From an uncultured Eubacteriales bacterium (GTDB lineage Bacteria; Bacillota; Clostridia; Christensenellales; UBA1242): a stretch of 64,000 nt of DNA. The notes under the pieces were generated by a model, which was given only the letters and a program-made list of their open reading frames with translations, did not search any database and was not told the DNA's origin. The position numbers were made by a program, and so were the translations under genes. The stretch is from positions 1,877 through 65,876 of the forward strand of contig CATKYT010000003.1 in NCBI GenBank assembly GCA_949841245.1. The letters run 5' to 3'. Positions within the stretch are counted from its first letter, which is position 1, and each line of letters begins with the position of its first letter. Shown here piece after piece: positions 1-36,937 of this stretch.

Positions 1-613
1 TTAAAACTGAAATGAAGTCTGGCATGGAAGAAGGAAGAACAAGTTTGAAAAATATCTGCCATTTGTTGGCATGCATGGATTTAAGAAGAAGAATTTTTCC
101 GTCATCCACTGACATAAATGCTGACAGCATGCTCATGGTGGTGATTACAATGCAAATTAAAACACACATCAAAATTATGGCACTTGTTCCTGCACCAACC
201 CAAAGAATGATGATTGGACCAAGAGCAATTTTTGGAAGTGAGTTTAAAACCACAATATATGGTTCAAAAACTTTGCGAACATTCTCGTTCCACCAAAGTG
301 CAACTGCTATTAAATAACCAAGCACAGTGGCTATGCCAAAACCGATAAGGGTTTCATAAAGTGTGACCCAACTGTTATATAAAAGCGTTCCGTTTTGTGC
401 CATGGAAACAATTTGCATGACGATTCTTGATGGTGAACTTATGAAGAAGGGGTCAAGCACTCCTACATATGTCAAAAGTTCCCATAAGCCTATAAACGCT
501 GCTAGAACAAAAATGCGGAAGAAAATTATGGCAAATTTGTTTCTTTTAAGTCTTTTTACATAATCTTTATGAGCCTTTGAAAAGTTAGTCGTTTTTATTT
601 GAGTTTTTTTCAT
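1..613 (-). CDS. ABC transporter permease, NitT/TauT (SsuC/TauC-like) family; partial, C-terminus lies beyond the window edge
   Basis: Hand translation of the minus strand from the ATG at 613 gives MKKTQIKTTNFSKAHKDYVKRLKRNKFAIIFFRIFVLAAFIGLWELL...YETLIGFGIATVLGYLIA...LNSLPKIALGPIIILWVGAG. It has several TM helices, and its start overlaps the stop of the upstream ATPase gene by 29 nt. It is missing from the ORF track only because it has no stop in the window. The + ORFs 12..317 and 363..563 are antisense shadows of it. Confidence 0.8.
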   Translation of the reverse strand, partial: MKKTQIKTTNFSKAHKDYVKRLKRNKFAIIFFRIFVLAAFIGLWELLTYVGVLDPFFISSPSRIVMQIVSMAQNGTLLYNSWVTLYETLIGFGIATVLGYLIAVALWWNENVRKVFEPYIVVLNSLPKIALGPIIILWVGAGTSAIILMCVLICIVITTMSMLSAFMSVDDGKILLLKSMHANKWQIFFKLVLPSSMPDFISVL

Positions 614-1364
614 TTGTAAGTTCACTCCAAATTTTATTAAACAAATCAGAAAAATTTTTGTCTTTGCGTTTTTTAAGCGGAGTAACACCTTCAAGGTCAA
701 GGAAAATGTTGTCTTTTATGGTTGCTGGTCTTGATGTTAAAACCAAAATCTTATCAGACATTGAAAGCGCTTCTGATATGTCGTGTGTCACAAGAAGTGC
801 TGATTTTTTTTCTGTCTTTATTATGGAATAGACATCATCACAGACAGAAAGTCTGGTTTGATAGTCCAGTGCTGAAAATGGTTCATCAAGCAAAAGCAAT
901 TTTGGTTCTAAAACCAAAGTTCGAATCAATGCCACTCTTTGACGCATTCCACCTGAAAGTTGTCTTGGCTTTTGATTTTTAAAACCATAAAGGTCATATT
1001 TTTTAAGCAAATCTTCTGCTTTGGCAAGTTTTTCATCCTTATTGTCTGGTTTTTGAATTTCAATGCCTAATGTGATGTTTTTCCATACACTTCGCCATTC
1101 AAGAAGATGGTCTTTTTGAAACATATATCCAATCTTTGTTCGGTCTATTTTATTTTCTCCGTCAAGTAAAATTTCTCCGCTGGAAGGCTTTAAAAGTCCG
1201 GCTGTAAGGGAAAGAATGGTTGTTTTTCCACAACCACTTGGTCCAACAAGCGAAGCAAAAGATTCTTCTTCAACATTGAAATTTACATTGTTTAAAGCAA
1301 AAATTTCGTCAGTTTTTGTTTGATAGAAATAATTGACATTTTTAAAAGTTAGTATGTTTTTCAT
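585..1364 (-). CDS. ABC transporter ATP-binding protein (nitrate/sulfonate/taurine type)
   Basis: Walker A GPSGCGKTT, ABC signature LSGGMRQRVALIRT, Walker B LLLLDEPFSALD and H-loop VTHD. Confidence 0.92.
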   Translation of the reverse strand: MKNILTFKNVNYFYQTKTDEIFALNNVNFNVEEESFASLVGPSGCGKTTILSLTAGLLKPSSGEILLDGENKIDRTKIGYMFQKDHLLEWRSVWKNITLGIEIQKPDNKDEKLAKAEDLLKKYDLYGFKNQKPRQLSGGMRQRVALIRTLVLEPKLLLLDEPFSALDYQTRLSVCDDVYSIIKTEKKSALLVTHDISEALSMSDKILVLTSRPATIKDNIFLDLEGVTPLKKRKDKNFSDLFNKIWSELTNEKNSNKND

Positions 1365-1457
1365 AAGTTTTCCTAAGTTTGTAAGAAATTACTCCTTACA
1401 ATTACATTCTATTTTGATTGCAAATTTTTGTTCCTTAAAAATTTTTGTCACGGTTTG

Positions 1458-1486
1458 TTGAATTTGCAAAAATTACAGGATAAAAT
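1458..1486 (+). promoter_or_regulatory. sigma-A-type promoter of the capsid cassette
   Basis: TTGAAT (1458-1463), 17 nt spacer, TAAAAT (1481-1486), lying 24 nt upstream of the first ATG. Confidence 0.4.
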
Positions 1487-1509
1487 GTCAGCAAAAGTTG
1501 AAGGTGAAC

Positions 1510-1800
1510 ATGGACGAAGAAGAAATTAAAAGGGCGTTGCTTAAAAAGGCTATTGGATTTGAATGTGATGAAGTGGTGGAAGAATACACCACTGACGAAA
1601 ATGGCAATGCCGTTTTAAGCAAACGAAAAATCACAAAAAAGTTTAATCCGCCTGATATTTCGGCACTTCGTTTTTTGTTGGAACAAGAAAGTTTGACAGA
1701 TGACGAGATTTCTAAGATGACGGACGAACAACTTTTGTTGGAAAAACAACGCCTTTTGCAACTTTTAAAAGAAAAGGAGAAAGAAGATGAAAATGTCTGA
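1510..1800 (+). CDS. Small acidic coiled-coil protein with weak resemblance to the C-terminal part of Firmicute phage small-terminase proteins; no N-terminal HTH
   Basis: ATG at 1510 follows GAAGGTG; the ORF-track TTG start at 1498 is less likely. KKAIGFECDEVVEEYTTDENG...KRKITKKFNPPDISALRFLLEQ resembles the KKALGYE...K.IPPD..A..F.L motif I associate with TerS-type proteins. This rests on recollection only. Confidence 0.35.
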   Translation: MDEEEIKRALLKKAIGFECDEVVEEYTTDENGNAVLSKRKITKKFNPPDISALRFLLEQESLTDDEISKMTDEQLLLEKQRLLQLLKEKEKEDENV

Positions 1801-2002
1801 TTGCAATGGTCAAATTAAATGTGATTTTTATGGATGCACAAATTTGGCAAAATACAGTTTTTCCACAAAAGGGTTTTTAAAAAGAGAACTTAATTTTTGT
1901 GATGGCTGTATGAAAGAAATGTTTGAATGTTTTTCTAAGGCATGTGTTCCAAAACCAGTTGAAGCACCTTTCAAAAGAAAAACTAAAAAGGAGACAAAAT
2001 GA
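1787..2002 (+). CDS. Cys-rich small protein (putative zinc ribbon), basic C-terminus
   Basis: AAGGAG lies 7 nt upstream of the ATG. The 71 aa include 8 Cys (C6, C12, C17, then CDGC...C...C). It overlaps the previous gene, and its stop overlaps the portal start (ATGA). Confidence 0.5.
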   Translation: MKMSDCNGQIKCDFYGCTNLAKYSFSTKGFLKRELNFCDGCMKEMFECFSKACVPKPVEAPFKRKTKKETK

Positions 2003-3843
2003 AGAAAATAATGGAAAATGATTTGGTAAGACAAACTTTGGAAGATTTTGAAGCAAGGGTTAAAGAAAGAAAAAGTTTTGACAGCCAATGGCAATTAAAT
2101 ATTAATTTCTATATGGGAAATCAATATTGTGATGTTGGATATGGTGGATTTGTCAGAGAAACAGATAAACAGTTTTTCTGGCAAGAAAGAGAAGTTTTTA
2201 ACCACATTGCGCCAATTGTAGATATGCGTCTTTCCAAACTTTATAAAATAAAGCCTAAGATGCATGTTTTGCCATCAACAAATGAAGAACAGGACATTTA
2301 CACGGCAAAGGTTGGTAAGAAGATTTTAAGTTCGATTACTTCAAAGTTGAATTTATACGACAAAATCAATCAAGCAACCAAGTGGAGCGAAATTTGTGGA
2401 ACAAGTTTTTATAAAATTTCATGGAATGCTGAACTTGGGCAAGTTGTTGCGATAAGTGATGATGGAAAAACAGTTAAAACAGGTGAAGTTCAAATAAGTG
2501 TTTGCAGTCCTTTTGAAATATATCCTGACAATGTTACTCATGAAAATTTAAGTGAATGTCAAAGCATTATTCATGCCAAGGCCTACACAGTGGATCAAAT
2601 AAAGCAAATTTATGGCGTGGAAGTGGCTGGCAAGGAAACGAAAGTTTATTCTCTTGACAGTGTTACTTCTGCTCTTGGCGGGCTTGGTTTGGGTGGTTTT
2701 GCCACAAAGTTGGAAGAAACCACTTTAAAAAACAGTGCTATTGTAATTGAAAAATATGTCAGACCATCGAGTGAATATCCAGACGGCAGATTTATTGTTA
2801 TTGCGGGAGATGTGCTTGTGCATGATGGAGAACTTCCTTATGTTAATGGTTTTGATGGACAAAGAGATTTTCCTTTTGTTATGCAGGTGTGCAGTGATGA
2901 AGTTGGTTGCTTCTGGGGTGTAAGCATGATTAACAGGCTTATTCCAATTCAAAGAGCGTATAATGCTGTTAAAAATCGTAAGCATGAATATCTTAATCGT
3001 CTTACTATGGGTGTTTTGACAGTTGAAGATGGAAGTGTCGACATTGACGACCTTGAAGATGAAGGACTTGCTCCTGGAAAAATTTTGGTTTACAGACAAG
3101 GAGCAAATGCTCCTAAATATTTAGGTGGCGAGAATGTTCCAACCGATTTTGAAAAGGAAGAAGAAAGATTATTGAAAGAATTTTCTTCTTTGGCAAGTGT
3201 AAGTGAAATGGGTAATATGGACAGTGTTTCAAGCATGAGTGGTGTGGCTTTGGAACTTTTGCTTGATGAAAATGAAAGCAGGCTTAGATATGCCACAGAC
3301 AGCGTGAAAAATTCCATTAAAGATTTGGCCAAGCAGGTTTTAAGACTTTACAGACAATTTGCCACTTTTCCAAGGTTGGTGAAAATTGTTGGAGAAAATG
3401 GAGAACTTGACATCTTCTATTTCAGAAGCAGTGATATTTCCAGTGATGATGTTCAGTTTGACATTGAAAATGAAAGCAATGACACTATGACTCAACGCAG
3501 AGATATGATATTCTCTTTGCTTGATAAAGGGCTTTTCTATGACGAAAATGGCAAAATATCCAATTCTTTAAAAACAAAAATATTGGAAGATATTGGTTTT
3601 GGCACATGGGAAAACAAAATTGATTTGGAAGACTTACACATTAAAAATGCTGACAATGAAAACAAAAGAATGCTTGCAGGGGAAGATGTAGTTGTTAAGG
3701 AGATTGACGACCATCAAATTCACATCAAGCAACATGTTGCTTCTATGCTCAACAATGTCTATAATGGCGACACAGACAAAGTTGTTGAAAAAAACTTTTT
3801 AAAACATATAAACACCCATAAAGAGAATTTGAAAGGAGAATAA
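1999..3843 (+). CDS. Phage portal protein
   Basis: 614 aa with no Walker A motif. The N-terminal ...WQLNINFYMGNQY... motif is typical of portal families. It sits immediately upstream of the scaffold and capsid genes and has an acidic C-terminal region. Confidence 0.7.
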   Translation: MKKIMENDLVRQTLEDFEARVKERKSFDSQWQLNINFYMGNQYCDVGYGGFVRETDKQFFWQEREVFNHIAPIVDMRLSKLYKIKPKMHVLPSTNEEQDIYTAKVGKKILSSITSKLNLYDKINQATKWSEICGTSFYKISWNAELGQVVAISDDGKTVKTGEVQISVCSPFEIYPDNVTHENLSECQSIIHAKAYTVDQIKQIYGVEVAGKETKVYSLDSVTSALGGLGLGGFATKLEETTLKNSAIVIEKYVRPSSEYPDGRFIVIAGDVLVHDGELPYVNGFDGQRDFPFVMQVCSDEVGCFWGVSMINRLIPIQRAYNAVKNRKHEYLNRLTMGVLTVEDGSVDIDDLEDEGLAPGKILVYRQGANAPKYLGGENVPTDFEKEEERLLKEFSSLASVSEMGNMDSVSSMSGVALELLLDENESRLRYATDSVKNSIKDLAKQVLRLYRQFATFPRLVKIVGENGELDIFYFRSSDISSDDVQFDIENESNDTMTQRRDMIFSLLDKGLFYDENGKISNSLKTKILEDIGFGTWENKIDLEDLHIKNADNENKRMLAGEDVVVKEIDDHQIHIKQHVASMLNNVYNGDTDKVVEKNFLKHINTHKENLKGE

Positions 3844-3845
3844 AT

Positions 3846-4484
3846 ATGGAAGAAATAATAAACGGAGAACAACCAGAAATGCTTGAAACCTTGGAAAAGG
3901 ACGAGAATATGGGCTCTCCAACGGTGACAGAAGAAGATAATGCTGAAAGCAAGTTAAGTGAAGCTGAAAGGGGCGTTCCCATTGGAAAATTTAAGAGTGT
4001 TGAAGACTTATACGATGCTTACAACAATCTTCAATCTGAGTTCACCAGAAAATGTCAAAGACTTTCCGAACTTGAAAAAGACAAAACTGCCATAACCGCG
4101 GAAGATAAGTTGGAAGCGGATTTTAAACAGTTCCTTTTAGATAATCAAGAAGCCTTTGCTTATGCGGATGAAATTAAATCCAAAGTTATGCAAAACGAAA
4201 GTCTTAAAAAACAGGCTCAACCGTTTGAAAAAGTTTGGGCGGAAATGGTGCTTGGGAAAATAAATGCCAAAGACCGAGCAAATGAGCCTTTAATTCAAAA
4301 TCTTGTCTTAAAAGATGAAGATTTAAAAAATTTGGTAATTGAAAACTATATGAAACAACTTCAAGAACATAAAACTCCTTTTATAATGTCTTCTGGGTCT
4401 GGTGAAAGGGTGACCAAAGCGGTTGCCCCTAAACCGGATTCTTTTGAACAAGCTAAAAAGGTGGTTCTGGATTTGCTTTCATAA
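3846..4484 (+). CDS. Phage capsid scaffolding protein
   Basis: 212 aa, acidic and predicted coiled coil. GKFKSVEDLYDAYNNLQSEFTRKCQRLSELE resembles Firmicute phage scaffold proteins. It lies between the portal and major capsid genes. Confidence 0.6.
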   Translation: MEEIINGEQPEMLETLEKDENMGSPTVTEEDNAESKLSEAERGVPIGKFKSVEDLYDAYNNLQSEFTRKCQRLSELEKDKTAITAEDKLEADFKQFLLDNQEAFAYADEIKSKVMQNESLKKQAQPFEKVWAEMVLGKINAKDRANEPLIQNLVLKDEDLKNLVIENYMKQLQEHKTPFIMSSGSGERVTKAVAPKPDSFEQAKKVVLDLLS

Positions 4485-4504
4485 ATCAAAAGGAGAAAAA
4501 TTAA

Positions 4505-5671
4505 ATGGTAACATTATCTAGTGCAGAAAATGTGCTTAAAGATGTCTATTTGGGTGTTATTGCTGACCAAATAAACACAAAAACAAATCCACTTTTTTCA
4601 AAAATTAAAAAATCAGCAAGAAATATTGTTGGAAAAGAAATAAGAGTAGTTGCACCAATTGGAATTAATGGTGGAATTATGGCTGGAACAGAAACAAGTG
4701 TTCTTCCAGAAGGGGTTGACACACCTTATCTTTCTTTCGTGGCTCCACTTAAAAACCTTTATGGTCGCTTTGAAATCAGTGATAAAGCAATAAGATGTTC
4801 TTCAAGCGATGTGAATTCTTTTGTTAATCTTCTTCAAGATGGCATGGATTCTCTTTTGAAAGCAAGCATCTTCAATTTAAGCAGAATGATTTATGGTGAC
4901 GGAAGCGGCTGTCTTGCAACTTTAACCGTTGCTTCTGATGTTGTGACAGTTTCAAATACTGACGCTGTTGCACCAGGTATGTATGTTGACATCTATTCAA
5001 CAACTGATCTTAGAAAAGCAAATGTATTTGTTAAAAATGTTGACAAAGCATCTAAAACAATCACTTTTGGTGAAACTGTGACAGGACTTGCAACAGGTGA
5101 CAAGATTTATGTTCACAATTCTAAAGACAATGAAATCATCGGTTTGAAAGGAATTGTTTCAAATGATTCTTTATACGGTGTAAAAAAATCTGATTACCCA
5201 ATCATGAATGCAAAAACTTACACAAAAACAGGCGTTGCATTTGATGAAGATTTTGTTCAAGAAATCATTGACAATCTTGAAATGAATGGAACTGTTGTAA
5301 ACTTTATCAACTGTTCTTATGAACTTAAAAGAATGTATCAAAAATATTTAACAATCTATCAAAAGAACATCAACTACACCACTTTGGAAGATGGAATGAA
5401 AGTTTTAACTCATTTTGGAACTCCAATTGTTCCTACAAACCAAATTGGTGCTGACGAATGTTATTTCCTTAACACTGACGACTTTACTTTCTATGAACTT
5501 GGCGATTGGAAATGGTTGGAAGATGAAAGCGGAAGAATTTTGAAGCAAGATGCAAGCAAGCCTGCTTTCTCTGCAACTTTGGTTAAATATACCGAACTTC
5601 TTTGTCAAAAACCATCTGGTGTTGGTTTTGTTTCTGGTTTGGCAACAAGCCTTCCAACATCTGATAAGTAA
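4505..5671 (+). CDS. Phage major capsid protein (probable HK97 fold)
   Basis: 388 aa with strong RBS AAAGGAG. Motifs ...LKNLYGRFEISDKAI... and ...RMIYGDGSG... are reminiscent of major capsid families. It follows the scaffold gene. Confidence 0.65.
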   Translation: MVTLSSAENVLKDVYLGVIADQINTKTNPLFSKIKKSARNIVGKEIRVVAPIGINGGIMAGTETSVLPEGVDTPYLSFVAPLKNLYGRFEISDKAIRCSSSDVNSFVNLLQDGMDSLLKASIFNLSRMIYGDGSGCLATLTVASDVVTVSNTDAVAPGMYVDIYSTTDLRKANVFVKNVDKASKTITFGETVTGLATGDKIYVHNSKDNEIIGLKGIVSNDSLYGVKKSDYPIMNAKTYTKTGVAFDEDFVQEIIDNLEMNGTVVNFINCSYELKRMYQKYLTIYQKNINYTTLEDGMKVLTHFGTPIVPTNQIGADECYFLNTDDFTFYELGDWKWLEDESGRILKQDASKPAFSATLVKYTELLCQKPSGVGFVSGLATSLPTSDK

Positions 5672-5689
5672 TAATTAAGGAAAAACTGT

Positions 5690-6010
5690 ATGGAAAAGTT
5701 GTTTAAAATTGACAGTGATTGTCTTGACATAGTTTCAAGAATTAAAGCGATTGACAAAGATTATTTTCTTGTTTACAACGAAGAAAATCAAAAATTTGAA
5801 GTCCACAATTCTTCACAAACCAAACACACTCTTTGTCTGATTTTGCCATTTGATGTTCTGGATGAAAGAACAATTGATTTGGTTTTAAAAACTCGAGTTC
5901 AAAATGCGGATAAGTTGTTTAAGGAAATGGAAGAAGAAAACAAGAAACTTGAAAAGGCAAAAATTAAGCAAGTTTTAAACGACTTTGAGGAGAAATTTTA
6001 TGACAGTTAA
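5690..6010 (+). CDS. Hypothetical phage head-associated protein
   Basis: 106 aa with RBS AAGGAAAAA and a Lys/Glu-rich C-terminal helix. No recognisable motif. Confidence 0.45.
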   Translation: MEKLFKIDSDCLDIVSRIKAIDKDYFLVYNEENQKFEVHNSSQTKHTLCLILPFDVLDERTIDLVLKTRVQNADKLFKEMEEENKKLEKAKIKQVLNDFEEKFYDS

Positions 6011-6554
6011 AGAAATTTTAAAATTGGTTTGTGAATATGTAGGCGAAAGAGAAATTTTGTCTAAACTTGACGATGAAGAAGCAGATTTTACTGATTATGA
6101 ACAAGAAAAACTTGATGTGATGGTAAAGTGTTTTAATCTGGTAAACCAAGAAATTGCAACAGACTATTTGCCACTTTTAATAAAAGAAGATGTCAGAGAT
6201 GAGAAAATTCTTTTCTCATCTCTTTCAAAAACTTTGGTGAATGTCTATGAAGTTAAAAACAGATTTGGAATGAACTTAAAATTTAAGTTGTTTCCAGAAT
6301 TTGTAGAAGTGGAAGGTAAACCTAAAACTATTGTTTACAGTTATTTGCCAGAAAACTTGTCTTTAAACGACAATGTGTGTTGCAATTTAAGAATCAATGC
6401 AAGGGTCTATGCTTATGGTGTGGCAAGTGAATTTTTGCTTATTTATGGATTAAGTGGAAATGCTGAGATTTGGGAAGAAAGATTTAAAACAAGTTTGTTT
6501 ATTCTCAGTAAGAAAAACAATTCATGTGTTTTACCAAAAAGGAGATGGCGTTGA
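6000..6554 (+). CDS. Putative head-tail adaptor / head-completion protein
   Basis: ATG at 6000 follows GAGGAG; the ORF-track start at 5985 is less likely. Size (~184 aa), position after the capsid gene and the N-terminal helical MTVKEILKLVCEYVG...EEADFTDYEQEKLDVMVKCFNLV are typical of gp6/gp15-like connector proteins. This is inference only. Confidence 0.35.
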   Translation: MTVKEILKLVCEYVGEREILSKLDDEEADFTDYEQEKLDVMVKCFNLVNQEIATDYLPLLIKEDVRDEKILFSSLSKTLVNVYEVKNRFGMNLKFKLFPEFVEVEGKPKTIVYSYLPENLSLNDNVCCNLRINARVYAYGVASEFLLIYGLSGNAEIWEERFKTSLFILSKKNNSCVLPKRRWR

Positions 6555-8050
6555 TATTCTATAAAAATTTAAAAAAACATCAATCAACAGAAGAAAAAAA
6601 TTTAGTTTTTTCGCTTTTTGATGATGGAATGAAATCAGAGATTGACGACTCTGTTGCTAAACCGAACATTTGTAAAAACTTTTATAATGTTACTTACAGC
6701 GATGGGGCATTAAAGACTGGTCTTGGATTTAAGGATTTGGAAGTTCCTTCAAACACTGAAGATCTGGAAACATGTCACACTTATTACTGCATGCCAGACT
6801 TTGTTGATGAAATTGAAGGGCTGTGGCTGGACAGTTATTACAGTAAAGATGAAGGGCGCTATGAGTATATGCTTTATTTTTACGCTTCTGATAAATTGCT
6901 TTATGAAGCATATTTAATTGACACATTTTATGGAATGGTGTTTTCAACAACTCATGCTTTGACATCTTATCCTTTTTTTCAATGTCATCATAAAGTTGGA
7001 AATCAAGACTGTATTGTGTTTTTTGCAGATGATATAATGGTCAGTTTCTGTGGACCAGTGGAATATAATCACACTGGCACGCCAGCACTTATTTCTTGTG
7101 TGGAATATTATGACAAACTCTTTGGAATTGCAAAAACAAACCGCAATCAACTTATTTATACAACAATTAAAAATCTTAATGAATGGACAGAAGCCAAAAG
7201 TACCAAAATTGATTTTATGGATGAAAAGGGTTTCTTTACAACTCTTGTTTCATTTAAAGATTATGTATATTTATTCAGAGAATATGGAATAACCAGACTT
7301 TCTGTTTTCAGTTCTAAGGATGACTTTTCTTACACTCATCTTTATACATCAACTTCCAAAATTTATGAAAAGTCAGTTTGTGTTTGTGGGGATTCAATTT
7401 TCTTTATGACACGAAACGGACTTTATTCTTTTAATGGGTCTTCGGTGACAAAACGATGTTCTGACTATGATGATTATTTCAAAAATCTTGACAACACAAA
7501 TTGTCGCAGTGCTTGCTTAAATGGTAAATATTATTTTGCCACAAGATGCAAGTTTGAAGATGATGAAAAAATGGGTTGTGAGAATGGTGAATATGTAAAC
7601 AATGTTCTTTTCGAAATTGATATTCACACTTTTGTGCTGAATGTTTATCGTGGTGTAGATGTTCGAGATATGGTGGCTATTGACAATCCTTACATGTGCA
7701 AATTGTGTGCTTGTTTTTATAATGAATATAAACAACACCTTGGGCAATTGGAATTTAGTGGAAAGACATTTACTGATGTAAACAAAAAATCTTGGACATC
7801 ATATTTCACCGATTTAAACTGTTATGGCAAGCGTAAAAAAATCAAAAAAATTGTTTTAAAAACACTTGGAAACATTCAAATGCAAATAATTTCTGACGAA
7901 GAGACAAAAACGATTAATTTCAGTGGAAGTGATAAAGAACAAGAAAAAAGTGTGTGTGTTTATGGAAAATCCTTTCAATTTTGCTTTAAAACAGATGAAG
8001 CGCAATGTGAAATTTGCAAACCTATGATTGTTTTTGATGTTGTGTCATGA
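6524..8050 (+). CDS. Large Cys/Tyr-rich structural-type protein of unknown function (possible beta-propeller)
   Basis: 508 aa with about 23 Cys counted by eye. Repeated strand-like motifs (GLYSFNGS, NGKYYFATR, SVCVCGD / SVCVYGK). The start is uncertain: 6524, ATG 6545 or TTG 6551 after AAGGAG. It is the last large gene of the head block. Confidence 0.4.
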   Translation: MCFTKKEMALIFYKNLKKHQSTEEKNLVFSLFDDGMKSEIDDSVAKPNICKNFYNVTYSDGALKTGLGFKDLEVPSNTEDLETCHTYYCMPDFVDEIEGLWLDSYYSKDEGRYEYMLYFYASDKLLYEAYLIDTFYGMVFSTTHALTSYPFFQCHHKVGNQDCIVFFADDIMVSFCGPVEYNHTGTPALISCVEYYDKLFGIAKTNRNQLIYTTIKNLNEWTEAKSTKIDFMDEKGFFTTLVSFKDYVYLFREYGITRLSVFSSKDDFSYTHLYTSTSKIYEKSVCVCGDSIFFMTRNGLYSFNGSSVTKRCSDYDDYFKNLDNTNCRSACLNGKYYFATRCKFEDDEKMGCENGEYVNNVLFEIDIHTFVLNVYRGVDVRDMVAIDNPYMCKLCACFYNEYKQHLGQLEFSGKTFTDVNKKSWTSYFTDLNCYGKRKKIKKIVLKTLGNIQMQIISDEETKTINFSGSDKEQEKSVCVYGKSFQFCFKTDEAQCEICKPMIVFDVVS

Positions 8051-8169
8051 AGAAAAAATATTTCAATTTAATCAAAATTTACAATGAAGAATATTTAAAA
8101 AATGACAATGATTTATTTAAAAATTTGCTGAAAATCAATAAGGAGTGCAAGCATGGAAGTTTGGAATGA
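8047..8169 (+). CDS. Possible 40-aa ORF translationally coupled to the 508-aa gene
   Basis: Hand translation gives MKKKYFNLIKIYNEEYLKNDNDLFKNLLKINKECKHGSLE. Its ATG overlaps the upstream stop (ATGA at 8047-8050). It is too short for the ORF track. Confidence 0.25.
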   Translation: MKKKYFNLIKIYNEEYLKNDNDLFKNLLKINKECKHGSLE

Positions 8170-8386
8170 GATAATCAGCATTATAGTAGGGAATGGGGTT
8201 TTTGCAATTTTGTTTGTGTGGTTGTTTGTTTATCAATTGAAGGACAGTTCTAAACGCGAAGAAAAATATCAACACACAATTGAAGAATTGACAACTCATC
8301 TGAAAACTTTGGATGAAGTCAAAGATGACTTACTTGAAATTAAAGATATATTAAAACTTGGAGATGAAAATGAAAAACTTTTTTAA
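8153..8386 (+). CDS. bhlA: BhlA/UviB-family holin-like peptide
   Basis: RBS AAGGAG. GVFAILFVWLFVYQLKDSSKREEKYQHTIEEL aligns by eye with Bacillus BhlA (GPFAVLFCWLLFYVMKTSKERESKLYNQI). It has a single N-terminal TM helix followed by a coiled coil. Confidence 0.75.
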   Translation: MEVWNEIISIIVGNGVFAILFVWLFVYQLKDSSKREEKYQHTIEELTTHLKTLDEVKDDLLEIKDILKLGDENEKLF

Positions 8387-8642
8387 AAAATTTCGCTCTT
8401 ACAATTTTTGGATTTCCTTTTCAGGTGTTTTGATAATTGCGTTGAATGCATTTGGAAAAATTTTTGGTTTTTCAATTGAAAATCAAGCAGTTGAAGAATG
8501 TATTCTTTCTTTTGCAGGTGTTTTGGTTGTGCTTGGCATTGTGGTTAAGGACGACACTAAAAAAGATGTTGAAAACAAAGAAGAAAATCTGGAAGAAATT
8601 AAAGAAAACTTTGATGAGTCTGATAAAAATGAAGATGAATAA
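8370..8642 (+). CDS. Phage holin, XhlB/SPP1-holin-like
   Basis: ATG at 8370 lies 6 nt after GGAG. It has two TM helices (FWISFSGVLIIALNAFGKIFGF, ILSFAGVLVVLGIVV) and a charged tail, an architecture like XhlB/BhlB. It directly follows bhlA, as in the SPbeta and PBSX lysis cassettes. Confidence 0.6.
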   Translation: MKNFFKKFRSYNFWISFSGVLIIALNAFGKIFGFSIENQAVEECILSFAGVLVVLGIVVKDDTKKDVENKEENLEEIKENFDESDKNEDE

Positions 8643-8674
8643 TAAAACATAATTATGTATAAATATACAATTAA

Positions 8675-8703
8675 ACCGCATTTTTGAAAGTGCGGTTTTT
8701 TTG
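8675..8703 (+). terminator. rho-independent terminator ending the cassette
   Basis: ACCGCA-tttttgaaag-TGCGGT followed by a T run. Confidence 0.8.
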
Positions 8704-8791
8704 TTGTAAAGTGAAAAATGTTTATTAAAATACTTGAAATCTGTTTTGTTATATGATATGATGTATTTAAGCGTAAAAAAGGAGGAGAGAT

Positions 8792-9112
8792 ATGAAAAAA
8801 ATTCTTTACACAATTTTGTCGGTTTTGTCTATTGCATACATTGCTTTTTTGATTGTGGATATAATTGGAGAACAAGACATTATAAACTTAAACTTAGGTG
8901 AATTCCAAAAAATATTCGACATCATTGTTAAGTTTGGTGGTGTGGCAATTATTTTCTGTTTTGCACTTGTAAACTTTGCAGGAAGCCCACTTAAAACAGT
9001 GTTCTTCATTTTGCTTATTTTGGCAATAGTGCTTTACATTGTTGTGCTTATTGTTCCTGATTTCTTTGCAAATTTGTTCGCTCCAAAAGCATTTATTAAC
9101 TTATTGTTTTAA
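8792..9112 (+). CDS. Small integral membrane protein (3 TM), unknown function
   Basis: Strong RBS AAAGGAGGAG. It has its own promoter-like TTGAAA...TATGAT upstream. The 106 aa are hydrophobic. Confidence 0.6.
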   Translation: MKKILYTILSVLSIAYIAFLIVDIIGEQDIINLNLGEFQKIFDIIVKFGGVAIIFCFALVNFAGSPLKTVFFILLILAIVLYIVVLIVPDFFANLFAPKAFINLLF

Positions 9113-9146: not shown

Positions 9147-11642
9147 ATGGAAAAGTTTATTATTATTGATGGTAACAGTTTAGCAAATAGGGCATTTTAT
9201 GCAATGCCCTATTTATCTAATCATGAACAAAAGCCGTCTGGGGCGGTGTTTGGTTTTGCAAACTTGATTACAAAACTTATAACAGAACAAAAACCAGATT
9301 ATATTGCAGTGGCATTTGACCATGCACGAAAAACTTTTCGAAATGAAATTTATGCAGACTATAAGGGAACTCGAAAGGAAACTCCTTCTGACCTTTTGGC
9401 TCAGTTTCCTGTTATTAAGCAGATGCTTGATGTGATGAAAATAAAAGTGTTTGAATTTGCTGGAATTGAAGCAGACGACATTATTGGAACCATTGCAAAA
9501 CATTCGGGTTTGAACAATATTTTGGTTTCTGGTGACAGAGATTTGTTGCAACTTATTGATGACAACACTCATGTTTGGTTAACTAAAAAAGGTGTAACAG
9601 ATGTTGAAGTTAATGACGAAAAAGTTTTAATGGAAAAGTTTTCTTTGCCACCATCAGGCATAATCGAATTGAAAGCGCTTATGGGTGACAGTTCAGACAA
9701 CATACCTGGTGTTATGGGGGTTGGAGAGAAAACTGCGCTTTCACTTTTACAGACTTATGGCACAATTAAAAATCTTTATTCTCATCTTGATGAAATTAAG
9801 GGTAAACTTAAAGAAAAACTGGAAACAGATAAAGTTAATGCTTTCATGTCAAAAGAACTTGCCACAATCAAAACGGATTGTGACATTGATTTTAATTTGT
9901 CTGATTGTAAATATGAATTTCCATTTTCACAAGATGTAAAAAACTTTTTTGAAAAGTGGGATTTCAGAAGTCTTGCTAACAGGAAAGACATTTTTGCGGA
10001 AGGTGTGCATTCAGAGAAAAAAGATGTCAAAAAAATTGCATTAAACAATGTTGATGATTTTATAAATTTCAGAAATAAAATTAAAAACTATTTTTGTTTC
10101 GATTTAGATAAAATGGAATTTGCTTGTGGTGGCGAAGAAATTTATTTTGTAGAAAAAGAGATAAGTCTTTTTGTGGAAACTATGGACTTAGACCAAATTT
10201 TAGAAATTTTGAAACCAGTTTTTGAAAATAAAAACATTATCAAAATTACTTATTCTTCGAAATCAGACATGAAGATTTTAAATAAATTGAACATTAAACT
10301 TGAAAATTTCTTTGATTTGGACATTGCAGAATATATGCTTTATGCTGGCATGCAAAGGGTGGAAAAACAAAGTGTTTGTGATTACATCAATTTGATGACT
10401 TCGCTTACAAGTAAAATGTCAAATGAAAAAGTTTTAAAAATTTATAATGAAATTGAAATTCCACTTGTCAGCGTTTTGGTTGACATGGAAGAAGAAGGTT
10501 TTAAAATTGATTCAGCAATTTTAAACCAATTAAGTGAAAAGTTTGATGCAGAACTCTCTGAATTGGTGCAAAAGATTTATGAGTTGGCAGGAGAAGAATT
10601 TAACATCAATTCTCCTAAACAAGTTGCAGGAATTCTTTTTGATAAATTAAAATTGAAATCGTATAACAACAAAAAACAATCTACAAATTTTGCAGTTTTG
10701 GATGATATGCGATGGCAACACGAGATTGTTGACTTGATTATTCGACACAGAAAATTGAGTAAACTTATAAGCACATATATAAAAGTCTATGAAAATATAT
10801 GTGAAAAGAGTGGTCCTGTAATTCATACTGTTTTTAATCAAACTTTAACTTCAACCGGCAGACTTTCAAGTTCCGAACCAAACATGCAAAACATTCCAAC
10901 TCGTGATGAAGAAGGCAGAAATTTAAGAAAAATTTTTGTTTCTAAATATGACCAAGGGGAAATTATTTCTGCTGATTACAGTCAAATTGAATTGCGACTT
11001 CTTGCAAATATGGCGGAAGAAGAAAGCATGATTCACGCTTATCAAAATGGAATTGATATTCATACAAAGACAGCAAGCGAGATTTTTGGTGTTCCTGTTG
11101 AAAAGGTTACACAATCTCAAAGACAAGATGCAAAAGCGGTTAATTTTGGAATTATATATGGAATAAGTGACTATGGACTTTCACAGAATATAAAAACTTC
11201 TCGTTTTAAAGCAAAGCAATATATGGACAGTTATTTTGACCGTTATCCTAAGATTAAGTCTTACATGGAACAAAACATTGAATTTGCCAAAGAAAATGGT
11301 TTTATAAAGTCTTATTTTGGAAGAACAAGACATGTTCCTGAAATTAAATCGTCAAATTACACTGTAAGAAAGTTTGGGGAAAGGGTGGCAATGAATATGC
11401 CATTACAAGGAACTGCATCTGATATAATCAAAATTGCAATGGTAAGGGTGGCAAAAAGGCTGAAAGGTATGAAAAGCCATATTATATTGCAAATTCATGA
11501 CGAACTTATTGTGGATGCTGTAAAAGATGAAATTCAGCAAGTTAAAGAAATTCTTAAACAAGAAATGGAAAATGTTTGTGATTTCCAAGTTTCACTTAAA
11601 GTTTCAGTTTCGAGTGGCAAAAATTTGTTTGATTGCAAGTAA
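9147..11642 (+). CDS. polA: DNA polymerase I
   Basis: N-terminal 5'-nuclease (IIDGNSLANRAFYA). Pol A motifs are DYSQIELR, RQDAKAVNFGIIYG and QIHDELIV. Confidence 0.95.
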   Translation: MEKFIIIDGNSLANRAFYAMPYLSNHEQKPSGAVFGFANLITKLITEQKPDYIAVAFDHARKTFRNEIYADYKGTRKETPSDLLAQFPVIKQMLDVMKIKVFEFAGIEADDIIGTIAKHSGLNNILVSGDRDLLQLIDDNTHVWLTKKGVTDVEVNDEKVLMEKFSLPPSGIIELKALMGDSSDNIPGVMGVGEKTALSLLQTYGTIKNLYSHLDEIKGKLKEKLETDKVNAFMSKELATIKTDCDIDFNLSDCKYEFPFSQDVKNFFEKWDFRSLANRKDIFAEGVHSEKKDVKKIALNNVDDFINFRNKIKNYFCFDLDKMEFACGGEEIYFVEKEISLFVETMDLDQILEILKPVFENKNIIKITYSSKSDMKILNKLNIKLENFFDLDIAEYMLYAGMQRVEKQSVCDYINLMTSLTSKMSNEKVLKIYNEIEIPLVSVLVDMEEEGFKIDSAILNQLSEKFDAELSELVQKIYELAGEEFNINSPKQVAGILFDKLKLKSYNNKKQSTNFAVLDDMRWQHEIVDLIIRHRKLSKLISTYIKVYENICEKSGPVIHTVFNQTLTSTGRLSSSEPNMQNIPTRDEEGRNLRKIFVSKYDQGEIISADYSQIELRLLANMAEEESMIHAYQNGIDIHTKTASEIFGVPVEKVTQSQRQDAKAVNFGIIYGISDYGLSQNIKTSRFKAKQYMDSYFDRYPKIKSYMEQNIEFAKENGFIKSYFGRTRHVPEIKSSNYTVRKFGERVAMNMPLQGTASDIIKIAMVRVAKRLKGMKSHIILQIHDELIVDAVKDEIQQVKEILKQEMENVCDFQVSLKVSVSSGKNLFDCK

Positions 11643-32978: not shown

Positions 32979-33842
32979 TTACAATATTTGTGTGTTGTGT
33001 TTAACATTGAAATAAGGATTAAATTGTGACAGAATTGCAAAGACAACAAGAAGTGATGCAATTATGCAATAATAAAGACTTGCTCGAACGAACAGACTGG
33101 CAAACACAAGAATAAAGGCAGAGAAAAGATAGCCCTTTGTTCTTTTTTTATTGAACGAATAAGCCAAAAAATCTTTAAACATCATCTTTTTTTCTTTGCT
33201 GTATTCAATGGTAATTTCTGGAAAATATTCATATTCTTTATAAAGTTTTTCATAAGTGTCATATTGATTTAAAAGCAAAAATTTTTCTTTAAAATTGTTG
33301 CAAAAAACACTTAAATTTTTGTCGGAAATTTCTTTGCAACAAATTATGATTTTGCCAGCTTTTTCAGACTTTATTTTGTTGTAAATTTCCATAAATCTTG
33401 CTTCTGTTAGTCCAGCAAAAGAAAGGTCTAACCAAAGCAATGTTTTGGTGTGATTTTCTGTTTCGTTGATGACTATATAATTTTTGTGTTTTACAATGTT
33501 TTTATGTCGTTTTGACGCCATTTTGACGAAATCATCAATGGGGTTATTTTTACAAGCCAATGAAAAGAATATGTTTTCGGCATCTTCTTTTTCTTTAAGT
33601 TTTAAACCAACCTTTTTTGTTTTGCTTCTTTTAAAAAGAAAAATTGCAAGGCTTATGAAAGCACTTATTAAAACCGCCAAAATAATAGACATGACAAATT
33701 TTCTGGTGAAATATCTCAGCCAAACAAATGAAATTAAAAACAATAGACAAAATTTTAAAAGTTCTTGGAAAACTAAACTTATTTTTCTCATATGAAGATT
33801 ATTGCCAAATGTTTGTTGTTTAGACATAAAATATCTTGACAA
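32979..33842 (-). CDS. Membrane protein of unknown function (2 N-terminal and 2 C-terminal TM helices flanking a soluble core)
   Basis: 287 aa; the start is ambiguous, with several in-frame Met codons near the N-terminus. TM helices include FCLLFLISFVWLRYF, SIILAVLISAFISLAIFLF, LFSAFILVFASLFV and YCIIASLLVVFAILS. Confidence 0.55.
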   Translation of the reverse strand: MSRYFMSKQQTFGNNLHMRKISLVFQELLKFCLLFLISFVWLRYFTRKFVMSIILAVLISAFISLAIFLFKRSKTKKVGLKLKEKEDAENIFFSLACKNNPIDDFVKMASKRHKNIVKHKNYIVINETENHTKTLLWLDLSFAGLTEARFMEIYNKIKSEKAGKIIICCKEISDKNLSVFCNNFKEKFLLLNQYDTYEKLYKEYEYFPEITIEYSKEKKMMFKDFLAYSFNKKRTKGYLFSAFILVFASLFVRASLYYCIIASLLVVFAILSQFNPYFNVKHNTQIL

Positions 33843-33871
33843 ATATAATAAGGGTTTGATAAAATTTATTT

Positions 33872-34186
33872 ATGAACGAAAATGTGCAAGCACTTGTGAA
33901 ACTTTTGCAAGACAACAAAATTAAAAACATCTCGGTTTATGAAGTGTCTTCTGATGTAGAAGGCAGATATATCATTTTGTCAACTTCCAATAAGGTGACT
34001 GACAGCAAAAAAGTGGCTGACATTATTGTGGAAAAATATAACTATACTGGAAAGGTAGAGGGATATTTTAAAGGCGAATGGATCGTTTTTGATTTTTTGA
34101 ATGTTACACTTCACATTTTCTTGCCAAAAGTAAGAGAAAAATATAATCTTGACAAACTTTATAAGCCAAGCAAAATTTCAATTTAA
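33872..34186 (+). CDS. rsfS: Ribosome silencing factor RsfS
   Basis: GEWIVFDFLNVTLHIFLPKVREKYNLDKLY matches the RsfS/iojap C-terminal signature. Confidence 0.85.
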   Translation: MNENVQALVKLLQDNKIKNISVYEVSSDVEGRYIILSTSNKVTDSKKVADIIVEKYNYTGKVEGYFKGEWIVFDFLNVTLHIFLPKVREKYNLDKLYKPSKISI

Positions 34187-34260
34187 CTATTTTTTTAAAA
34201 AACAAAGAAATTTACTTTGTTTTTTTTTATTTTTGGGTTATAATTTCATTAGGTGAAAGT

Positions 34261-34689
34261 ATGATTGAAATTTGCTTTATTTGCACTGGAAACACTTGTC
34301 GCTCTGTAATGGCAGAACGCATCGCAAAAAAGATGGCAAAAACAAAAAAAATTAAAGATGTAAAGTTTTCATCGGCAGGAGTTCGGGCAAATGGTGAAAA
34401 TATAACTAAGGGTGCTGTCTATGCTTTGAAAAGCCTGGGTTATGATTCACGCAAAAGAAAAAGTGTTCAATTGAAAAATGTCAAGCCAAATGTGGTTTAT
34501 GTCACGGTGACAAATGATCATAAAAAATTTGTGGATTCGAAAAGAGTTTTAAGTTTTGAAGATTTGGCAGGAAAAGTTTGTGACCCTTATGGTCAGGGCT
34601 TTGATGTTTATGAAACTACGGCAAAACAAATTGAAAAGAATGTTGAAATGTTGTTAAATAAAATTGAAAATTTGAGAGGTGTGGAATGA
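34261..34689 (+). CDS. Low-molecular-weight protein phosphatase (YwlE-like arginine/tyrosine phosphatase)
   Basis: Active-site P-loop CFICTGNTCRS and a DP motif (VCDPYG). It lies upstream of rpiB, as ywlE-ywlF do in Bacillus. Confidence 0.85.
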   Translation: MIEICFICTGNTCRSVMAERIAKKMAKTKKIKDVKFSSAGVRANGENITKGAVYALKSLGYDSRKRKSVQLKNVKPNVVYVTVTNDHKKFVDSKRVLSFEDLAGKVCDPYGQGFDVYETTAKQIEKNVEMLLNKIENLRGVE

Positions 34690-35113
34690 TTATTATGGCA
34701 AGTGACCACAGAGGTTACACATTAAAAGAAGAATTGAAAACATTTTTCAATCAAGAAAACATAATTACAATTGATGTAGGCACTTACAGCAAAGAGCCTG
34801 TTGATTATCCAGATTTTGCCAAACTTGGAATTGATAAAATTTTGAAAGATAAAAACAATGTGGGAATTTTCATTTGCGGAACTGGCAATGGAATGGCTAT
34901 GGCGTGCAACAGAAACTCTAAAATTCGTGCTGCTCTTTGTTTTAATGAAAAAATTGCCATGCTTACTCGAAAAGATAATGATGCCAATGTTTGCTGTTTG
35001 CCAGCAACAACAAAAAAACATAAGGCAATAAAAATAGTTAAAGTTTTTCTTACAACAAGTTTTGAAGGTGGCAGACACGCAAGAAGAATTAAGAAAATTT
35101 CAGGAGATGACAA

Positions 35114-35117
<4 letters not shown>
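34686..35117 (+). CDS. rpiB: Ribose-5-phosphate isomerase B
   Basis: ASDHRGY, ICGTGNGMAMACNR and GGRHARRI motifs. Confidence 0.9.
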
Positions 35118-36915
<1,798 letters not shown>

Positions 36916-36937
36916 AAATTTTTAAAAAGGATAAACA

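Follow-up and report, generated by a model that had tools for sequence, protein, structure and literature searches.

Long-read sequencing of gut virus-like particles, reported in 2026, showed that packaging of host DNA in the manner of a gene transfer agent (GTA) is common in gut Clostridia (PMC12946183). The described case is FpGTA, the GTA of Faecalibacterium prausnitzii, which has a ten-gene operon of 10.5 kb (Borodovich et al., Nat Commun 2026, PMC12946183). Its operon I encodes a small terminase subunit (TerS) without a DNA-binding domain, the large terminase subunit (TerL), portal, capsid, and short-tail parts, and operon II, located 125 kb away, encodes a tail fibre, a receptor-binding protein, a holin, and an endolysin (PMC12946183). 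The FpGTA particles measure 40 nm and contain about 8.4-9 kb of host DNA, and lysis occurs in late stationary phase (PMC12946183). GTA-like packaging was also detected in Gemmiger, CAG-115, Onthomonas, R. callidus, and Christensenellaceae metagenome-assembled genomes (MAGs). No gene cluster was assigned to the packaging in the Christensenellaceae MAGs, and no homologues of this FpGTA operon were detected in the Gemmiger and Subdoligranulum reference genomes (PMC12946183). The genes behind such packaging are known only for Faecalibacterium. Here we analyzed 64,000 nucleotides (nt) of contig CATKYT010000003.1 (assembly GCA_949841245.1) from an uncultured Eubacteriales bacterium of the Christensenellales; this whole stretch is called the window below. 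Near its left end lies a block of phage head, tail, and holin genes (1443-8708), termed the cassette. We propose that the cassette probably represents the structural and lysis genes of a GTA-like element that is derived from a podovirus, spread over several loci, fixed in the chromosome, and inherited vertically in the Caccovivens lineage.

Gene content of the cassette

According to the list of open reading frames (ORFs) in the window, the block is intact and comprises 11 co-directional ORFs on the plus strand. It is flanked on the left by a divergent ABC-transporter ATPase gene (585-1364, minus strand) and on the right by polA (9147-11642). The ORF junctions are tight or overlapping, with 4-nt ATGA overlaps at 1999-2002 and 8047-8050. 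This layout agrees with an earlier reading made from the DNA letters alone (the sequence-only reading). Its count of about ten ORFs was nearly right: all of them are where it placed them, and an eleventh, conserved small ORF is added at 8047-8169. The terminator that it proposed is also present, as an 11-bp stem with a T-run. The features are as follows.

1443-1486, plus strand: cassette promoter, with the box TGTCAC-N6-TTGAAT (1445-1463), a 17-nt spacer, and the -10 element TAAAAT (1481-1486)
1510-1800, plus strand: short TerS-like protein of 96 amino acids (aa), starting with ATG at 1510 (the ORF opens with TTG at 1498); matches the C-terminal part of phrog_309
1787-2002, plus strand: 71-aa Cys-rich, Zn-ribbon-like protein, with an ATGA overlap with the portal start
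1999-3843, plus strand: portal protein of the P22 type, 614 aa; PF16510, phrog_156
3846-4484, plus strand: scaffolding protein candidate, 212 aa, by position only
4505-5671, plus strand: major capsid protein of the podovirus type, 388 aa; NF033394, phrog_14242
5690-6010, plus strand: conserved protein, 106 aa, at the position of P22 orf69
6000-6554, plus strand (ORF also from 5985): probable head-to-tail adaptor, 184 aa, by position only
6524-8050, plus strand: P22 gp10-like tail nozzle or hub by predicted structure, 508 aa (gene callers also give 501 aa)
8047-8169, plus strand: conserved small ORF, 40 aa, with a residue pattern shared in relatives
8153-8386, plus strand: BhlA-family holin or bacteriocin-like membrane peptide, 77 aa; PF10960, phrog_2429
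8358-8642, plus strand: phage holin, 92-94 aa; PF04531, phrog_297
8673-8708, plus strand: intrinsic terminator closing the operon, with an 11-bp stem, a 4-nt loop, and a T-run (hairpin 8673-8698)
8792-9112, plus strand: 106-aa membrane protein, uncertain as a member of the system; always adjacent, with its own promoter-like site

Profile searches supported the portal and capsid identities suggested earlier. The portal protein matched PF16510 (P22_portal) with E = 6.7e-18 and 65 bits against a cut-off of 26.1, and phrog_156 with E = 1.5e-40. The capsid protein matched the NCBIfam model NF033394 (capsid_maj_Podo) with E = 1.5e-58 and 198 bits against a cut-off of 80, and phrog_14242 with E = 6e-48; in the NCBIfam scan, it showed no match to TIGR04387 at E < 0.01.

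The 508-aa protein had no sequence-level match in Pfam, PHROG, or PDB profiles. Its AlphaFold2 model, built from an 88-sequence alignment, reached a pLDDT of 88.5 and a pTM of 0.88. When the model was compared with the PDB by Foldseek, the best match was the tail of Pa223 (9nwi_Y, E = 6e-20, TM score 0.68); further matches were VP1, GP4, P22 gp10 (9jg6_a, 8u10_1), SU10, and T7 gp12 (E from 6e-20 to 1e-10). A Foldseek search of BFVD returned proteins annotated as 'P22 Gp10 DNA-stabilising'. As judged by this predicted structure, the 508-aa protein is a podovirus tail nozzle or hub of the P22 gp10 type, and the sequence-only reading erred in seeing no tail. Since nozzle and holins are present, the cassette corresponds to a head with a short tail stub and holins, not to a head alone. 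The nozzle gene is followed only by the 40-aa ORF and the holin genes.

The 96-aa product of the first gene had no Pfam or PDB match. In its family, 42 of the 49 members matched the terminase small subunit profile phrog_309 over its C-terminal part (best E = 1e-7), and the window copy did so with E = 9e-4. Because only the C-terminal part of the small-terminase profile was matched, we read the protein, from its sequence, as a short TerS-like protein lacking the N-terminal DNA-binding domain. It had been called a TerS-like fragment; the first half of this label holds and the second does not, since the aligned family members are 88-129 aa long and, on this alignment, about 96 aa is the native size.

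The remaining head genes were assigned mainly by position. The 212-aa protein, which had no match in Pfam, PHROG, or NCBIfam and none to Prp, sits between portal and capsid like P22 gp8 and is thus a scaffold candidate by position only; every species has it, and with a mean identity of 0.50 it ranks among the least conserved proteins of the cassette. The 184-aa gene directly precedes and overlaps the nozzle gene, as P22 gp4 overlaps gp10, and by this position its product is a probable head-to-tail adaptor. Its single-sequence AlphaFold model was unusable (pLDDT 36), and an hhalign comparison of its family with P22 gp4 gave a null result, as did the positive control (508-aa family against gp10). 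The 106-aa protein, whose counterparts in nearly all species of the clade have 102-114 aa (a single ORF call gives 159 aa), belongs to a family without an informative PDB or PHROG match. When every member of the 184-aa and 106-aa families was compared with PHROG, only single weak matches to families of unknown function resulted, and PDB sequence-profile searches with the 508-, 184-, 106-, and 96-aa families gave no meaningful matches. The 71-aa Cys-rich protein had no Pfam or PHROG profile match; it is 69-78 aa long and present in all clade species with contig coverage.

At the 3' end, the BhlA assignment was borne out (PF10960, E = 1e-15; phrog_2429, E = 5.5e-15). The next gene, described earlier as an XhlB-like holin, indeed encodes a holin (PF04531, E = 1.7e-4; phrog_297, E = 1e-10), albeit not one that is specifically XhlB-like. 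In at least 42 of 56 loci, a counterpart of the 40-aa ORF, 33-51 aa long and with the pattern KFFDK.KFF.K..FY..GD...K.LL....G.LE, is located between the nozzle gene and the BhlA gene; public annotation of relatives also calls it as a gene.

As the sequence-only reading had noted, a flank repeat search found no att-like direct repeats around the block, and no integrase, repressor, or lysin was matched in Pfam or PHROG among 10 of the 11 ORFs (the 40-aa ORF was outside the scan); the same holds for replication proteins. Neither the block nor its flanks contain an integrase, att sites, or replication and regulatory modules of the type found in capsid-forming phage-inducible chromosomal islands (cf-PICIs).

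Conservation and selection at the ABC-transporter/polA site

To compare the locus among relatives, we scanned one genome per GTDB species with the capsid protein and obtained 61 loci (given as L numbers below). In 57 of them, the complete block is located at the same chromosomal site. The common layout is two membrane-protein genes, ABC permease and ATPase genes, cassette, 106-aa membrane-protein gene, polA, and ruvX. These 57 genomes are MAGs that bear the label Candidatus Caccovivens or uncultured Clostridia; in GTDB, Caccovivens corresponds to the genus UBA11517 (family UBA1242, order Christensenellales). Comparison of the ABC-transporter/polA interval, which the sequence-only reading had suggested, thus revealed that block and synteny are kept in 57 species. 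The species are well separated: identity to the window ranges from 97% down to about 45% for the capsid protein and falls to about 60-65% for polA, and the polA proteins of the 57 species average 68% identity. The cassette ORFs are of full length and have kept their sizes in every species with coverage. The few truncated calls are mostly at contig ends.

The ratio of nonsynonymous to synonymous substitutions (dN/dS), determined by the Nei-Gojobori method in close pairs, was 0.02-0.2 for nearly all cassette genes compared to 0.03-0.06 for polA. The highest values were those of the second holin (0.12-0.38) and the scaffold candidate (0.10-0.31), and the 106-aa cassette gene showed 0.03-0.20. Between the window and the relative L002, dN/dS was 0.02 for portal, 0.04 for TerS-like, 0.06 for capsid, 0.06 for nozzle, 0.07 for the 71-aa gene, and 0.07 for the 184-aa gene; the comparison genes polA and ruvX had 0.05 and 0.10, respectively. 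Pairwise protein distances of the cassette followed those of polA, ruvX, and the ABC gene (Pearson and Mantel r = 0.90), a correlation that did not occur in any of 2000 permutations.

Because of the fixed site, the intact ORFs, the low dN/dS, and the co-divergence with the flanking genes among the genomes found through the capsid protein, we exclude recent decay as well as a mobile satellite or prophage. That decay is the less likely explanation had already been suspected, and the 57-species synteny, the intact ORFs, and the housekeeping-like dN/dS agree with this. We are nearly certain that the block was domesticated and is under selection.

Some loci showed mosaic synonymous divergence (dS). 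In the pair L015/L047, dS was ~0-0.05 from the ABC gene to the capsid gene and 0.25-0.5 from the 184-aa gene to polA, and in the pair L042/L045 it was 0.37 for portal and 0.9-1.4 from capsid to nozzle. Such a pattern points to recombination inside the locus among related species. The ABC ATPase gene, the permease gene, and the two membrane-protein genes are always joined to the cassette (window 1-1364; L064 10001-13154). On the other side, the 106-aa membrane protein (8792-9112) had no family match and lies between holin and polA in nearly all 57 species; its gene is preceded by a promoter-like sequence, TTGAAA-17-TATGAT with TG, at 8734-8762.

The terminase locus in relatives

The sequence-only reading held that TerL was precisely absent, with the Zn-ribbon ORF in its slot. 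The relatives show a different picture. What we regard as the ancestral gene order was seen in L058 and L060-L062 (the most distant of the genome loci), on three contigs from IMG/VR, and at most of 80 metagenome loci retrieved with a TerL profile. It runs: activator, SH3 protein (minus strand), TerL, TerS-like, (63-74-aa ORF), portal, scaffold, capsid, (106-aa-type), 184-aa-type, and nozzle. L068-L070 also show the order activator, SH3 protein, TerL, TerS-like, portal. In the ancestral-order loci, TerL is a Terminase_6N/6C protein, the activator is of the sigma-70 region-4 type and matches phage transcriptional activators (phrog_36, E = 1e-8; phrog_248, E = 8e-8), and the SH3 protein is signal-anchored. 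Thus, the TerL slot is to the left of the TerS-like gene, where the ABC genes now abut the cassette, and not between TerS-like and portal. The 71-aa gene is found between TerS-like and portal also in some relatives with an adjacent TerL; in distant TerL-adjacent elements, this slot contains weak homologues or ORFs of the same size.

In about a quarter of the ancestral-order loci, a large minus-strand gene (about 850 aa) is located upstream of the activator gene. The divergently transcribed 780-930-aa protein at this place has weak beta-propeller matches (L060 1242-3791, minus strand; ~20 metagenome loci), is absent from the clade of the window, and may be a fibre or receptor-binding component.

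Close relatives do carry TerL, displaced by 5-144 kb, which contradicts the view of a system without this enzyme. In seven close clade species, TerL (476 aa) is 5-8 kb upstream of the cassette and is followed by a gene for a 776-827-aa signal-anchored surface protein, then by inserted host genes, and then by the cassette. An intermediate state was found in L080, L087, and L102, in which only the large surface protein separates TerL from TerS-like. On one metagenome scaffold of 173 kb, a locus with activator, SH3 protein, TerL, and surface protein is located by mgsA, 144 kb from a complete polA-side cassette and in the opposite orientation. In another relative, TerL adjoins homologues of the window genes at 32979-37900. 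The displaced TerL always adjoins the phage-type transcriptional activator, and the region upstream of the four inserted genes forms a synteny breakpoint, which varies from species to species.

The displaced TerL is well preserved. It is 82-86% identical among aligned clade members, which makes it more conserved than polA, and 60-66% identical to the TerL proteins of the ancestral contiguous elements. Its residues in Walker A (GKT), in a Walker B-like motif, and in the nuclease region do not vary, even in comparison to distant elements.

The 776-827-aa surface protein has an N-terminal signal peptide, a repeat-rich middle part, and a C-terminal membrane anchor (L063 11519-13849; L017 1296-3635; L153 11654-14137). 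It follows TerL in at least 15 loci of the lineage and evolves very fast, with 30-38% identity between species whose TerL proteins are 80-86% identical; it might act as a receptor or in exclusion, among other roles. On the scaffold with the split loci, a gene for an NMT1-type substrate-binding protein adjoins the TerL locus (L153 14268-15299). Together with the ABC genes joined to the cassette, this hints at one transporter operon that was inserted into the element and broken later by rearrangement.

Promoter and regulation

The promoter-like site upstream of the cassette (1458-1486) agrees with the consensus at 9 of 12 positions. By consensus alone the match is modest, but the sigma-A-like promoter proposed by the sequence-only reading gains support from conservation: the box TGnCAY-N6-TTGA together with the -10 element was found in 52 of 54 species, with 0.03 occurrences expected per 139 nt. 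The distance from the box to the start codon of the first cassette gene is 57-92 nt, and in the examples read, a TAnAAT -10 element is located 17 nt past the box. In the 64-kb window, a single exact match to the box was detected, at the cassette. At the TerL locus, the activator gene has the same box upstream of it, also on the scaffold where both loci are present. Since the box is common to both promoters, the activator may control the two loci coordinately.

We considered a sigma-54 promoter and rejected it, because the spacing is one base too long, the motif ends with TTGA instead of TTGC, and a sigma-A-type -10 element is located 17 nt downstream. A second conserved non-coding motif, RAAAGTTGC, was observed in most species downstream of the -10 element and ahead of the ribosome-binding site that serves the first gene (window 1487-1509; L002-L059). 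It could be an operator or an element of the 5' untranslated region.

Proposed function

Three sets of observations bear on the assignment to a GTA-like element. Phage structural genes reside in the chromosome, with no match to replication, integration, or lysogeny-control proteins among the ORFs scanned. The genes are inherited vertically and are under purifying selection at one site in 57 species. Finally, the loci are dispersed in relatives, as in GTAs, whose scattered genes cannot be packaged and transferred as one unit; for the species of the window, the corresponding finding is only that TerL is missing from -10 to +62 kb.

Based on these data, we suggest the following scheme. A second locus elsewhere in the genome would provide TerL as packaging ATPase-nuclease, the late activator with its sigma-70 region-4 helix-turn-helix, and two envelope-anchored proteins. 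In the history of the element, host genes would have been inserted between TerL and TerS-like, and later rearrangements would have parted the halves. In a subpopulation of cells, the activator would turn on its own promoter and that of the cassette via the TGnCAY-N6-TTGA box. Procapsids would then assemble on the portal, and TerL together with the DNA-binding-deficient TerS would load the heads with chromosomal DNA without sequence specificity. Adaptor and nozzle would close the head, and the holins, aided by a further or host-derived wall hydrolase, would release the particles. Packaging of random DNA by a GTA yields pieces too short to encode the system; here it has indirect support from the TerS-like protein without a DNA-binding domain and from the GTA-like packaging in Christensenellaceae MAGs (PMC12946183). 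For GTA behaviour in the strict sense, that is, packaging of random host DNA and its transfer, we see an even chance.

Several observations weigh against this proposal. For the species of the window, tblastn with TerL proteins of the family detected TerL neither in the 64-kb window nor in the 10 kb that precede it (L064-L067), which extends to the whole window the earlier statement that the block has no large terminase. Likewise, genes for the activator, for receptor-binding proteins, and for wall hydrolases were not found in the window or the 10 kb upstream. The cassette encodes no needle (gp26) or plug, fibre, tailspike, ejection proteins, or endolysin. The extra tail genes of the phage-like relative L058 (807 and 671 aa) have no homologue in the window and are lacking in the clade. 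The short TerS is not in itself a GTA adaptation, because phage-like relatives have it too. Furthermore, the 144-kb split was seen on one metagenome scaffold, clade members without a cassette would escape a genome set collected by capsid, and all genomes are MAGs or metagenome contigs.

With respect to the terminase, the 10 kb upstream of the window contain pcrA, ligA, and other host genes. The genes that flank TerL in relatives (mgsA, valS, NMT1, and the gene for the 776-aa protein) are absent from the window, and none of the best 120 TerL homologues per search could be tied to the window's species. In view of the constraint on portal and TerS-like between the window and L002, and of the pattern in relatives, it is nonetheless likely that this genome carries TerL elsewhere.

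Alternative explanations

Conservation and selection would suit any beneficial function. The block could therefore make a domesticated particle with another role, either a PBSX-like killer or bacteriocin, or a programmed-lysis device that packages DNA incidentally; in the latter case, the BhlA-type peptide and the holin would matter most. Such roles are in line with the annotation of the BhlA family in phrog_2429 (bacteriocin production or immunity) and with the lack of receptor-binding or ejection proteins in the cassette, none of which were identified elsewhere in the window, and the authors of the FpGTA study left a PBSX-like role open for their system (PMC12946183). However, tail-like bacteriocins are generally described as using a contractile or flexible tail, whereas only a short nozzle is encoded here, and the strong constraint on portal, TerS-like, and TerL is not needed for killing or lysis. 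We consider these roles unlikely, although they form the main rival to a GTA-like element. More improbable still is a DNA-free protein shell, such as an encapsulin-like compartment or a secreted nanoparticle, which would apply if the species truly had no TerL. The sequence-only reading had listed a protein compartment among its options, and the failure to find TerL from -10 kb to +62 kb of the block is what this explanation would predict. It is at odds with the conserved portal and TerS-like genes, which between the window and L002 are as constrained as polA (dN/dS 0.02-0.04), and with TerL, which is intact, including its catalytic motifs, in every relative with enough contiguity; moreover, no cargo-like gene is evident.

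The sequence-only reading also considered a capsid-forming satellite, that is, a cf-PICI-like element without an integration module, to which a helper phage would supply TerL and tails. This would explain a compact gene set with its own capsid, portal, TerS-like protein, and connectors and no TerL in the block, and a 2026 preprint states that GTA candidates and capsid-forming satellites are easily confused. The premise that cf-PICIs borrow TerL was inexact, since they are described as stealing only tails. Besides, neither integrase, repressor, nor replication protein was matched among the ORFs scanned, att repeats are missing, and the block occupies the identical site in 57 species and co-diverged with its neighbours, as expected for vertical inheritance of a fixed locus. 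In addition, it encodes its own nozzle, and relatives keep a cognate TerL of the same phage lineage in the host chromosome. A satellite is thus very improbable. We give even less credit to a decaying prophage remnant that recently lost TerL, tail, lysin, and lysogeny genes by deletion. In its favour, the module also occurs in the distant relatives L058 and L140, there together with TerL and further tail genes, and these two resemble complete phages. Against this, eleven genes are intact in 57 species with polA averaging 68% identity (about 60% in comparison to the window), dN/dS is 0.02-0.2 for nearly all genes, and the promoter is conserved. Among the options raised by the sequence-only reading, a domesticated GTA-like head is the one that best fits the fixed site, the intact genes, the dN/dS values, and the co-divergence.

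Implications

The cassette belongs to a wider family. With the capsid protein of an Acutalibacteraceae member as query, we found 5980 homologues at E < 1e-30, and the G+C content of the wider-family loci ranges from 29 to 64%. In an Acutalibacteraceae branch, a Flg_new (PF09479) repeat domain at the C-terminus of the capsid protein forms a built-in decoration (L132 14277-15668; P0121-P0240). Scans of IMG/VR with TerL and capsid yielded only four short contigs and no complete free phage. No cultured host was found, the members of the cluster of a related capsid being MAGs throughout. A literature search revealed no paper describing the family of the window cassette.

Tentatively, we propose that the cassette and the TerL-activator locus represent an undescribed, ancient, podovirus-derived GTA family that is distributed across gut Clostridia and accounts for the 4-10 kb packaging in Christensenellaceae and non-Faecalibacterium taxa, with box and activator forming a dedicated regulon. 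This is possible rather than probable at present. If the element works as proposed, it would offer a way for genes to move among gut anaerobes with small genomes that cannot be cultured so far. The Caccovivens lineage and related Clostridia elements now have a recognisable candidate gene set, consisting of the capsid/portal/nozzle cassette, the displaced TerL with the activator, and the promoter box. The data also show that host genes can divide a domesticated phage that nonetheless remains under selection. A 'prophage without terminase' in a single window should therefore not be read as decay or as a satellite.

Comparison with known systems

The nearest sequenced phages are Jasminevirus and relatives (Arthrobacter phages Brad, Adat, and Jasmine; Microbacterium phage Shocker). 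Their capsid proteins are 25-27% and their portal proteins 22-23% identical over >90% of the length, and their TerL proteins are 28% identical over ~85%. They share the order portal, unknown gene, capsid, ~520-aa gene, but as complete lytic phages of Actinobacteria, 45 kb in size, they also have genes for tail, lysin, and replication.

The gene order is that of P22 (Lederbergvirus), as the sequence-only reading had recognised: portal, 212-aa, capsid, 106-aa, 184-aa, and 508-aa genes are colinear with P22 genes 1, 8, 5, orf69, 4, and 10. Further similarities are the PF16510 portal, the gp10 nozzle fold, and the overlap of adaptor and nozzle genes. In contrast to P22, the gp26 needle, gp7, gp20, gp16, and the tailspike are missing here, and the ~96-aa TerS follows TerL, while the TerS of P22 precedes it. 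Beyond the portal, no sequence similarity between P22 and the cassette was detected.

cf-PICIs integrate by means of an integrase at att sites and are able to replicate; a helper phage induces them, and what they package is their own genome. The window block resembles them as a small element with its own capsid, portal, TerS, and connectors, but has no integrase, att sites, or replication module and, among the capsid-ascertained genomes, neither a patchy spread nor a variable insertion site. PBSX of Bacillus subtilis is likewise a fixed defective phage of a Gram-positive host, which packages host DNA and has a sigma-like late activator and a holin pair; it differs in being a contiguous, ~28-kb, myovirus-like element with a contractile tail.

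With RcGTA, the GTA of Rhodobacter capsulatus, and related alphaproteobacterial GTAs, the window system shares vertical inheritance, purifying selection, a multi-locus organisation, a TerS without a DNA-binding domain, and, in the proposed scheme, a dedicated direct activator and release by lysis. RcGTA and the window system are unrelated in sequence. RcGTA has a siphovirus-like, HK97-type head-tail cluster of ~15 kb under the control of CtrA, GafA, and quorum sensing, whereas the window system is podovirus-like and its activator is a phage regulator of the sigma-70 region-4 type.

The closest parallel is FpGTA. Both systems occur in gut Clostridia, have a podovirus-like content, a TerS without a DNA-binding domain, and holins, and lack replication and integration genes. 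Both are near-ubiquitous in their host lineage and have split loci, with a distance of 125 kb in FpGTA and 5-144 kb in the relatives analyzed here. They differ in the capsid, which is of the N4-gp56 family in FpGTA (RCH50849.1) and of the NF033394 (capsid_maj_Podo) type here, and in the gene between portal and capsid, which is Prp-like in FpGTA and encodes the 212-aa scaffold candidate here. In FpGTA, the putative TerS gene is immediately upstream of TerL, which is directly followed by portal; here, the order is TerL, TerS-like, (71-aa gene), portal. The holins are encoded in operon II of FpGTA and in the structural locus here. For FpGTA, particles, proteome, and packaged DNA were measured. 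As judged by two proxies, the names given by depositors and the gene order, the window system follows the same plan as FpGTA but belongs to a different family.

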